Positions 1,324 to 48,985 of a stretch of DNA of 64,000 bases are shown one piece after another. Under the pieces are notes generated by a model. That model saw nothing but the letters and a program-made list of their open reading frames with translations, ran no database searches and was not told the origin of the DNA. Source of the stretch: Fistulifera solaris (lineage: Eukaryota); the NCBI GenBank assembly GCA_030295235.1, contig AP026162.1, forward strand, positions 1,922,001 to 1,986,000, written 5' to 3'. Position 1 is the stretch's first letter. Each line of letters begins with the position of its first letter. Made by a program: the position numbers and the translations under genes.

Positions 1324-1414
1324 CTCTCGATAGCTCAGTTGGCAGAGCGGCAGACTGTAGAAGGTTTACTATGCATTTATCTGTAGGTCACTGGTTCGAT
1401 TCCAGTTCGAGAGA
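1324..1414 (+). tRNA. tRNA-Tyr (GTA) with an 18-nt intron at 1361-1378
   Basis: Acceptor stem CTCTCGA/TCGAGAG+A, D arm GCTC/GAGC, anticodon stem GCAGA/TCTGT with CT-GTA-G, intron after position 37, T arm ACTGG-TTCGATT-CCAGT, T-run at ~1425. Confidence 0.96.
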
Positions 1415-18768: not shown

Positions 18769-19937
18769 ATGGCAAAAGGTAACAAGAGACGCAAAGTTGC
18801 TGAAGGAGAGGAAAAGCCCAAGGCCGTCGTCGAGAGCGAGGAAAACGAGCTTTCCGAGAGTGAAGAAGAACCGTCAAAACCAGCCGCCATCGCGACTGAG
18901 CCATTTATTAGTGATGGACGATATCGAAACAAACAGCGTTGTCTTGTCCTGTGTTCCCGGGGTGTAACTGCTCGTTATCGTCATCTTCTTGAGGACTTAC
19001 GAACACTAATGCCACATCACAAGAAGGAATCCAAATTGGACTCAGGGAAAGAGGGCATCGGCCGCGCCGTCAACGACATTGCAGAGATGCGTGGTTGCAA
19101 GAGTGTCGTGCTTATTGAGTGCCGAAAGAGACAAGATGCTTATATGTGGCTAGGACGAGTCGGCGGGGGCTCGCCTGGTCCAACAGCGCGTTTTCATGTC
19201 ACCAACATTCACACGATGGACGAGCTTCGACTGACAGGCAATTGCATGAAGGGTAGCCGGCCTTTCCTCACGTTCGATGAAAGTTTTAATCGCATCAGCC
19301 ACCTCAAGTTACTGAAAGAAATTTTCATTGACACCTTTGGTGTTCCGCGGGGGCATCCCAAAAGCAAACCGTTCGTGGACCGTATCATGTCATTCTACTA
19401 CGCTGACAATCGAGTAAGTTGCTGTTTTGCATCGTGCCTTGTTGAAATTGCCATTGATTACAAAAATGATGAGCGTATGTCGGACCGCAGTAGTGGAATG
19501 AGAACAACCTTCATTATTAGACTACGATGGAATGAGGCTTAATTTCTCAAGTGTGGTATCGCAACGCTTTCTGTGCTTGACTAACATGTCTTTCGTTTTA
19601 GATCTGGGTTCGTAACTATCAGATACTTGATCAGGTACCTGCGACTGCGCTTGAAGCTCATCAAGCAAAGAAACAGTATGGCCAAACCGAAACGACATCT
19701 TTGGTCGAAATCGGTCCTCGGTTTGTTTTGGAACCCATCAGAATCTTCCGAGGTTCTTTCGGTGGCCAGTCCCTGTACCAAAACGATCATTTTATTTCTC
19801 CTAATGAGATCAGAGCGCAAGAAAAGCGAATGAAAGGCAGAGAGTACGAAGATCGAAAAGATTCTCAGACGAAACGCCAGGAAAGAAAATCACAGATCGT
19901 GGTCCCAGAGGATCCTCTTGCTTCTGTTTTCCGTTAA
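18769..19937 (+). CDS. BRX1: Ribosome biogenesis protein BRX1 (Brix domain); intron 19414-19601
   Basis: NKQRCLVLCSRG, RHLLEDL, GPTARFHVTNIHTMDELRLTGNCMKGSRP, HPKSKPFVD, IWVRNYQI, LVEIGPRFVL. The splice joins in frame. Confidence 0.96.
19460..19540 (+). ncRNA. Candidate intronic box C/D snoRNA (18S rRNA methylation guide)
   Basis: Box C ATGATGA at 19466-19472. 12-nt guide AGACTACGATGG at 19519-19530, complementary to 18S CCATCGTAGTCT. Variant box D ATGA at 19532-19535. Flanking GAAATTGCC / GGC(TT)AATTTC stem. Confidence 0.7.
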
Positions 19938-47427: not shown

Positions 47428-48985
47428 TCAAACCATCGAAATTCCTGGCCAAGCCTGAATCCATGCCTCTCGCATCGCCGTCGCCAGCTGAGGGTGATTC
47501 GCTTGGAAAGCAGCGGGATCTTCAGCATAGCCTGAAGCGATGAACAAAAAAGAATGCGTACGTGTGTTAGGGAACTACTTTGATCAAGCACCTCAAGAAC
47601 GAGCGAGTCATTCGTGTACTTACAGACAATGACTGTGTTGATCGCAGAACCAACGACGCTGAGGATGACCGAGGCAAACAGGAATCCAACCAATAAGCCC
47701 ACAAAGAATGCCGGTCCGTGCGCTTCCTCGTATCCCAGGCTGACAAACATATTAGGACTCATGTACCCCAATACGAGACCGACGATACCACTTGCCAGCC
47801 CAATGGATAGAGCAATGAGAGACAAGACATTTGCTGCCAAGTCATCAGTGATGACAACTGTCCAGCCCTTGTTCTGAAACAACTCGACCACATTCTTTCC
47901 AGCTTCCAAGTAGGAAAAGCCGTACATGCCAATGTAGACATACGCCCATCTGTTGATATATTCAATGAAGGACTCGATGCAAGCCAAAATGCATTGTATG
48001 ATACAGGTCAGAAATTGGTAGTCACGTTCATCGCGCGTATATTGCTCGAGTGCCCGCAAAGCCTGAACGATGGCTACCAAGAAGCTACCGAAACAAATGG
48101 ATCCAAAAGACGAAGTGAGCGCCCGATACAAACTATCCCGTTGTGCTTGACTGAACCAGCTTGTGGCTTCGTCGGGAACGAACCACCACGTCGCGACCGT
48201 CCCCGCCGTTGTCACGTGCATGGTGTTCTGCAAAACTTGGTGTACCCAGTAGTAGGACAGGAACTGCAATGATGGGTTAGATTTTTTCAATCCGCATACA
48301 AGCGTCTCGTACAAAAGAAGGAACTCACCAAAAAGAAAAATCATGGCCACGTTTTCGCCCTTCAAATAATTACCCAGCCCCAGGAACCAAAGAAGCGTCC
48401 ATACAAACGCCAGTCCAGTAAAGACGAAGGAGATCCCGGTCAAACCGAGATTCTGCTGTACGGCGGTCAAAGCCGTCTTTAAATTGACTGCCGCAAAGGG
48501 AATGCGCGACCACACCAGGCGGGCGTAACAAATCCCAATGGCGAAGCTGACGAGACCCAGCACGCCCATCAACATGGATCCCGCCATGAATCCCACAATA
48601 CCGACCGCCAAACTGGATGCCACCGAAAAGTAAAGAGCCGTCTGGACCAGTGATTCCGCATTCTTCATCATGAACGATAGGGCGGCCATCGAAAATCCTA
48701 CCGCAGTGACGCCTGTCACGGAGACTGTAAAACGATTCCGCCGTAGGCTCCGGAATTAATACCTTCCGAGGACTGCAATCCGGCGAATATCATGAACACT
48801 ACAATGAACAGGTGCACATAAAAGGCCACCGCCCACAGGACATCTTGAAATTGATGATTCGGTGTGGGTCGAAGATGCGTGCTTTCGGCGGCGGCGTAAT
48901 CCGAAGAAGCCGCGTGATACGGCACTTGGCTACTCTGATACGGCTCGGAGACCGAGACGCCTTGAATGATGGGTACGTTAGACAT
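47428..48985 (-). CDS. Choline transporter-like (CTL/SLC44, PNS1-like) protein; introns 48264-48328 and 47532-47623, frameshift near 48730
   Basis: FQDVLWAVAF, SRIPFAA, HVTTAGTVATWWF, SFGSICFGS, NRWAYVYIGMYG, VCYAEDP. Confidence 0.9.

Follow-up and report, generated by a model that had tools for sequence, protein, structure and literature searches.

A predicted double-guide box C/D snoRNA in a BRX1 intron of the diatom Fistulifera solaris

Introduction

Nucleotide A27/A28 of 18S rRNA is the target of human U27 (SNORD27), yeast snR74 and Arabidopsis AtU27, the RNAs of Rfam family RF00086, as described in the accessible parts of PMC3511168 and PMC5699541. In the available text of PMC8053127 the Arabidopsis U27 is listed with A43 of U6 as its other target, and in that of PMC7671301 the A28 guide of Ostreococcus, Ot-CDsno70, is listed together with 18S C38 and 25S C931. 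A second 18S nucleotide that matters here is U1013 of Arabidopsis, which follows the segment G1006-A-U-A-C-C-G, has been scored as methylated and is guided by SnoR20.1 (PMC8053127, same excerpt). The part of PMC8583080 available to us tabulates Um1013 without a human or yeast equivalent, and gives AtU27 (for its 5' target) and AtsnoR20-1 (for its 3' target) as separate Arabidopsis genes. Both the assembly of the proteins on these RNAs and the rule that the fifth nucleotide of the duplex is the one modified are established for the C/D class (accessible sections of PMC8162545).

Diatom snoRNAs and rRNA modifications are nearly uncharted. The literature searched, which included few subscription journals and had Rfam as the sole RNA database, held no account of the RNA described below, of a diatom snoRNA catalogue or of a diatom methylation map, and the accessible parts of PMC4247016, PMC5122169 and PMC3273799 contain nothing on this RNA. 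Here we describe an intron in BRX1, a ribosome-assembly gene of Fistulifera solaris, that very probably encodes a double-guide box C/D snoRNA, predicted to direct methylation of 18S A28 and U992. An intronic box C/D snoRNA with a single guide had been proposed for this intron in an earlier, sequence-only reading of the same DNA.

The host gene and its intron

The window, by which we mean the whole stretch of 64,000 nucleotides that was analysed, contains a BRX1 gene with the following parts:

18769..19413, + strand: BRX1 coding exon 1, 215 codons, corresponding to positions 1-145 of the Brix profile (Pfam)
19414..19601, + strand: host intron, 188 nt, phase 0, GTAAGT...TAG (GT..AG ends)
19581..19585, + strand: branch-point-like CTAAC, 45 nt 3' of box D, the presumed branch point
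19602..19937, + strand: BRX1 coding exon 2, through the stop codon, corresponding to Brix profile positions 151-193 (Pfam)

Joining 18769-19413 to 19602-19937 gives a BRX1 protein of 326 residues, in which the Brix domain is interrupted by the intron at profile positions 145/151. The closest named relatives of the protein are diatom BRX1 proteins, the top one being a Brix protein of Phaeodactylum tricornutum (83% over a 171-aa query). The intron is spliced, and its ends and length are those given in the sequence-only reading: the joint 19413>19602 was seen in contigs of two of four runs (X2 and X3, the RNA nature of which is only guessed), with exactly 19414-19601 skipped. Contigs of run X1 span the BRX1 intron and resemble DNA, and run X5 is a small-share metagenome. 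The missing intron contigs in X2, X3 and X5 were not counted as evidence, and contig libraries of this kind are unlikely to show a mature RNA.

Anatomy of the predicted RNA

The elements assigned to the predicted RNA are listed below, with the letters of the forward strand.

19450..19538, + strand: predicted double-guide box C/D snoRNA, ~89 nt, with presumed mature ends
19450..19452, + strand: 5' strand of the terminal stem, GCC, followed by the 3-nt kink-turn bulge ATT (19453-55)
19454..19460, + strand: box C, variant TTGATTA, of which T19459 pairs with A19532 of box D
19468..19479, + strand: D' guide GATGAGCGTATG, to the genome's own 18S nt 25-36, with T19476 facing A28; it overlaps the motif that the sequence-only reading took for box C
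19481..19484, + strand: box D', variant CGGA (CTGA, CAGA or CCGA in most orthologs)
19485..19496, + strand: short hairpin CCGC-AGTA-GTGG of 4 bp, between D' and C'
19498..19504, + strand: box C', variant ATGAGAA (GTGAAGA in several centric-type orthologs)
19519..19530, + strand: D guide AGACTACGATGG, to the genome's own 18S nt 989-1000, with A19527 facing U992
19532..19535, + strand: box D, variant ATGA, invariant in 20/20 aligned copies
19536..19538, + strand: 3' strand of the terminal stem, GGC, directly 3' of ATGA

The terminal stem (GCC 19450-52 with GGC 19536-38) can be extended by pairing of 19444-49 with 19541-46. It is followed by the layout of a kink-turn, that is, by three bulged bases, GA, and then U-U and U-A pairs with ATGA; the GA/GA, U-U and U-A pairs are present in all 20 of the aligned copies. 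The U-A pair occupies the place of the usual G-C pair of the C/D stem, so that the variant TTGATTA compensates for the variant ATGA. All four boxes differ from consensus, including the CGGA that serves as D' in the window. The positions of D' and C' are conserved, with the hairpin between them in pennate copies, and both motifs are degenerate; we assigned C' from a stem, a 3-nt bulge and GA geometry that point to this position. Folding of the whole molecule gave no useful structure, as expected of a C/D RNA.

A possible internal helix was also observed, in which 19463-19473, including the 5' part of the A28 guide, would pair with 19510-19518, the stretch preceding the U992 guide. Pairing of the 5' third of the D' guide within the RNA amounts to 9 bp in the window and to a mean of 6.4 in the 20 copies, versus 4.5 after shuffling, and in some centric-type copies a change on one side is accompanied by a change on the other, which lends the helix modest support. 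Such pairing could shorten the usable guide.

Guides and their predicted 18S targets

The D guide (19519-19530) forms 12/12 Watson-Crick pairs with nt 989-1000 of the genome's own 18S rRNA, where nt 1 is the 18S start defined by Rfam. The base opposite U992 is the fifth one 5' of ATGA. In some orthologs the pairing of this guide reaches 15 bp, the guides of orthologs being scored against the rRNA of this genome rather than that of each species. The sequence-only reading had placed this 12-mer directly before a variant box D ATGA at 19532, complementary to an 18S segment, with a flanking stem, and had predicted by the D+5 rule the U that is to be methylated. Box D, the stem and the location of the guide are as it described, save that one spacer base, A19531, separates guide and box; the complementary site is present in the genome's rDNA (16 pattern matches); and the predicted U is 18S U992. 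It had further connected the site with the region of plant snoR20 and yeast Cm1007. The plant connection stands, U992 and Arabidopsis Um1013 both being the final U of GAUACC-N-U, while yeast Cm1007 (snR79) is a different, nearby nucleotide. The 16 dispersed matches to the 18S motif are found on contigs C15, C16, C45 and C46 of the genome (G000), where they occur on either strand at intervals of tens of kilobases and do not constitute one tandem array.

The D' guide (19468-19479) pairs with nt 25-36 of the same 18S through 11 Watson-Crick pairs and one G-U pair, with its fifth position opposite A28 and with one base separating it from CGGA. Three positions distinguish it from the consensus guide of SNORD27 in Rfam; opposite the diatom 18S, two of them pair in Watson-Crick fashion and the third as G-U. 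This second guide was overlooked in the sequence-only reading, and it is the guide that ties the RNA to U27/snR74. Both guides have the form of antisense elements of the class (10-21 nt complementary to rRNA, close on the 5' side of D or D'), both keep the one-base spacing to their box exactly in pennate and centric copies, and both, by the fifth-nucleotide rule, hit nucleotides that are methylated elsewhere, namely Am28 and Arabidopsis Um1013. Other 9-nt rRNA complements within the RNA have no adjoining box and were dismissed. In the available text of PMC8053127 a predicted Arabidopsis target adjacent to U1013, C1014, is unmethylated, so that a prediction of this kind can fail.

Shuffling the window 40 times gave, per 64 kb, 1.1 cases of a 12-nt complement to rRNA with a D-like box after it, or ~0.002 per 188 nt of one strand. 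At that rate a single observation is weak when the window as a whole is considered, and it is conservation that makes it solid.

Conservation within the genome

A second, homeologous copy of the intron is present in the genome, with 92% identity. The homeologs differ at one position within the 89 nt of the predicted RNA, at 19489 in the loop of the hairpin, and at 14 positions within the 99 nt that make up the rest of the intron (Fisher p=0.0006). An exact-pattern search for the U992 guide with its box found no copy in the genome outside the two homeologs, and searches at the level of DNA and exact patterns identified no further paralogs. Two extra genome matches to the A28 pattern, on contigs C16 and C24, are located in open reading frames and were attributed to chance, and a match of the RNA model to window positions 47890-47975 (E 0.15) was rejected as coding-like sequence. 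A scan of viral contigs with the double-guide pattern gave no match.

Conservation across diatom loci

A metagenome scan based on a BRX1 alignment yielded 408 relatives, the best 80 of which were analysed. An intron is present at the same codon in 34 of these 80 loci and absent from 46, many of which are short contigs, probably of spliced transcripts. Several of the longer intron-less contigs, which also carry adjacent reading frames, fall with Parmales references or outside the diatom group. BRX1 lacks an intron at this codon in three long contigs, L049 (near a Leptocylindrus reference) and L066 and L068 (near Parmales references); if these are genomic, they suggest that the host intron is confined to part of the diatoms.

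Both guides were found in one RNA in 23 of the 34 introns (best 80 of 408 relatives), the guides were split over separate units in three, the A28 guide alone was present in four, and neither guide in the remaining four, the double form being absent in 11/34. There are five near-identical pairs among the 23 double-guide loci, and collapsing these leaves ~18. The double-guide form occurs in 15/16 of the intron-bearing loci of the pennate clade, in 7/7 of a Thalassiosirales-type clade and in L051, and the loci near Chaetoceros references are split, A28-only or empty; these clades are read from a quickly made tree, drawn from its midpoint, in which many forks are open and the order of events is not fixed. 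Orthologous introns without either guide were observed in L013 (2286-2371, only 86 nt), L043 (1811-1985) and L046.

Twenty double-guide units were aligned, comprising those of the window, its homeolog and 18 loci, with the five duplicates and a second copy in L027 omitted. In this alignment there is almost no variation in box C, in either guide, in the GA of D' and of C', or in box D, and the TGATT core of box C is kept in 20/20 copies. The terminal stem shows double changes at 5/5 pairs, with a covariation score of 0.442 versus 0.220 for shuffled alignments; none of 500 shuffles scored as high, all six slid controls were lower, and RNAalifold recovered the same stem unprompted. A model made from the aligned units found all 30 guide-bearing introns, 18 of which belonged to its training set, and none of the four guide-less introns and no intron-less locus. 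A branch-point-like motif lies 45-74 nt 3' of box D in 21/22 complete introns; as this is near the vertebrate optimum, stated in the accessible text of PMC8162545 as roughly 50 nt, we counted the spacing in favour of a snoRNA. The assignment to the class of intronic box C/D snoRNAs made in the sequence-only reading is borne out by the conserved boxes and guides and the covarying stem, and the alignment of BRX1 introns across diatoms that it had named as a check likewise has boxes and guides conserved. By this comparative evidence the snoRNA is real.

Proposed mechanism and alternative readings

Like other members of its class, the snoRNA would be transcribed together with BRX1, and splicing followed by trimming with exonucleases would free it. 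A kink-turn, closed by the short terminal stem, would form from box C (UUGAUUA) and box D (AUGA), and the RNA would be expected to bind Snu13, Nop56/58 and fibrillarin and to accumulate. The D' guide, on 18S nt 25-36, would direct 2'-O-methylation of A28, which is the job of U27/snR74, and the D guide, on 18S nt 989-1000, would direct methylation of U992, the job of SnoR20.1 in plants. We think it likely that both methylations occur.

The alternative that survives best, although we judge it improbable, is that the snoRNA is real but has one catalytically active guide, the other duplex acting only as a chaperone or anchor on pre-rRNA. The variant D' (CGGA) and C' boxes would suit such a division, as would the internal helix, which may mask part of the D' guide, and the four loci that retain the A28 guide alone. 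It is less easily reconciled with the exact one-base spacing that both guides maintain in pennate and centric copies, with the methylation elsewhere of both fifth positions, or with the genome searches, in which the U992 guide-plus-box was found only at the two homeologs and the other A28-pattern matches fell in open reading frames.

We give very little credence to the anatomy of the sequence-only reading, a single-guide snoRNA of ~75 nt with its box C at 19466 and U992 as its only target. The ATGATGA at 19466 is there and is a perfect match to the box C consensus, and the U992 guide of that reading is real. However, ATGATGA is kept in only 11/20 copies, versus 20/20 for the TGATT located 12 nt upstream, and in centric-type copies it is replaced by ACGACGA or similar, which improves the pairing with 18S. 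Moreover, a box C at 19466 has no closing stem with the box D at 19532 and a G-A mismatch would remain, whereas the invariant TGATT stands at exact kink-turn spacing from the covarying stem. The letters at 19466 are thus not box C, and the predicted RNA measures ~89 nt instead of ~75 nt. That this is an ordinary long intron, with motifs that arose by chance or serve as splicing signals, is scarcely believable as an explanation. In its favour, about one 12-nt match with a D-like box is to be expected in 64 kb, and no Rfam family matches the RNA above its threshold; against it, the intron has kept both guides, all four boxes and the covarying stem in distant diatoms, and its flanks are not conserved.

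Relation to described snoRNAs

As in U27/RF00086, the guide to A28 is situated between box C and D', in the 5' half of the molecule and at comparable distances; the double-guide RNA differs from that family in its UGAUU/AUGA boxes and in its additional D guide to 18S U992. The window gave no match to the RF00086 model, which has a gathering threshold of 52 bits, and one of 11 ortholog loci, L053, matched at 25.5 bits, in an alignment that covers the whole model and brings its box C, its guide and its D' into register. Since this score is below the threshold, formal membership failed, and we regard the RNA as a functional counterpart of U27 to which it is probably homologous. No BRX1 host for a U27 was found in the literature searched.

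Arabidopsis SnoR20.1 (At3gCDbox99.1) addresses the same 18S uridine (Um1013; old number U1010) by its 3' guide, according to the available excerpts, and the likeness noted here is one of target and guide position. No snoR20-like Rfam family matched the diatom RNA. The model of Tetrahymena TtnuCD28 (RF02303) aligned with box C, an A28-type guide and a D' of CAGA in register, at 16.1 bits (E 3), which is far under its threshold of 70 bits, and the 3' guide of TtnuCD28 differs from the U992 guide. An 11-nt identity between window positions 19503-19513 and the 3' guide of TtnuCD28 was considered and set aside as probably due to chance, the loosened pattern being present in 1/34 introns.

The nucleomorph snoRNAs GtNM-R12-14 of Guillardia theta carry the same compensatory boxes, AUGAUU and AUGA, the comparison covering this box variant (accessible part of PMC6461891). 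According to that text the UGAUU/AUGA pair occurs in expressed cryptophyte nucleomorph snoRNAs, and it is also present in the Rfam consensus of snoU36a. A scan of the window against Rfam returned only a tRNA at the gathering threshold and, by E-value, only sub-threshold matches. The Rfam search, another check named in the sequence-only reading, did not identify the RNA, which escapes Rfam owing to the variant form of all its boxes. Elsewhere in the window, at 1324-1414 (+), there is a tRNA gene whose anticodon loop is enlarged by an insert of ~20 nt; judging from its GUA anticodon, it is probably an intron-bearing tyrosine tRNA.

Variant introns and a possible history of the locus

Locus L027 has two tandem copies of the RNA with both guides in each. 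In L034, L038 and L040 a U992-only unit comes first and an A28 unit second, all with UGAUU/AUGA boxes. Given that order, a simple deletion between units would not join the two guides but lose both, and duplication followed by reciprocal loss is therefore the simpler reading of these loci.

The BRX1 intron of L034 (852-1755) is 904 nt long and contains five C/D units: one U992-only unit, one with a 13-bp guide to A2809 of the large-subunit rRNA, and three A28 units. In the three A28 units the 3' guide is about three changes away from the U992 guide, forms 13 bp with large-subunit nt 595-607 and points to large-subunit A598 (in the numbering of this genome). The BRX1 intron of L058 (1395-1949, 555 nt) apparently has three C/D units, the first of which was recognised by eye only; one unit has a 15-bp guide to 18S A1112 and one is of the A28 type. 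A decayed snoRNA of the L035 type was observed in L044 (1226-1453), with D', the hairpin and the box D region recognisable and box C and the guide gone.

We tentatively sketch a history of the locus across diatoms, to which we attach somewhat less than even confidence. An old double-guide RNA of U27 type may have been duplicated (as in L027), its jobs may have been divided between the copies (L034, L038 and L040), one descendant may have decayed (L044), and the U992 guide may have been retargeted to A598 in L034. Such a history would also imply that a methylation tabulated for plants alone is present in diatoms too, whether as an ancient common inheritance or through convergence.

Significance

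The RNA is an uncatalogued double-guide snoRNA, new in its combination of guides and belonging to a class that is thoroughly known; its mechanism is that of the textbook, and the function of C/D snoRNAs is unchanged by this case. Two predicted 18S marks are united in one RNA, and plants assign them to two separate RNAs. The RNA supplies the diatom counterpart of U27/snR74, which had apparently been missing, and it predicts an 18S methylation that has otherwise been mapped in plants. Searches for diatom snoRNAs should permit UGAUU/AUGA boxes. The RNA is present in locus L011, which has a Brix segment identical to that of the Phaeodactylum tricornutum protein, and the prediction is therefore testable in a genetically tractable diatom.
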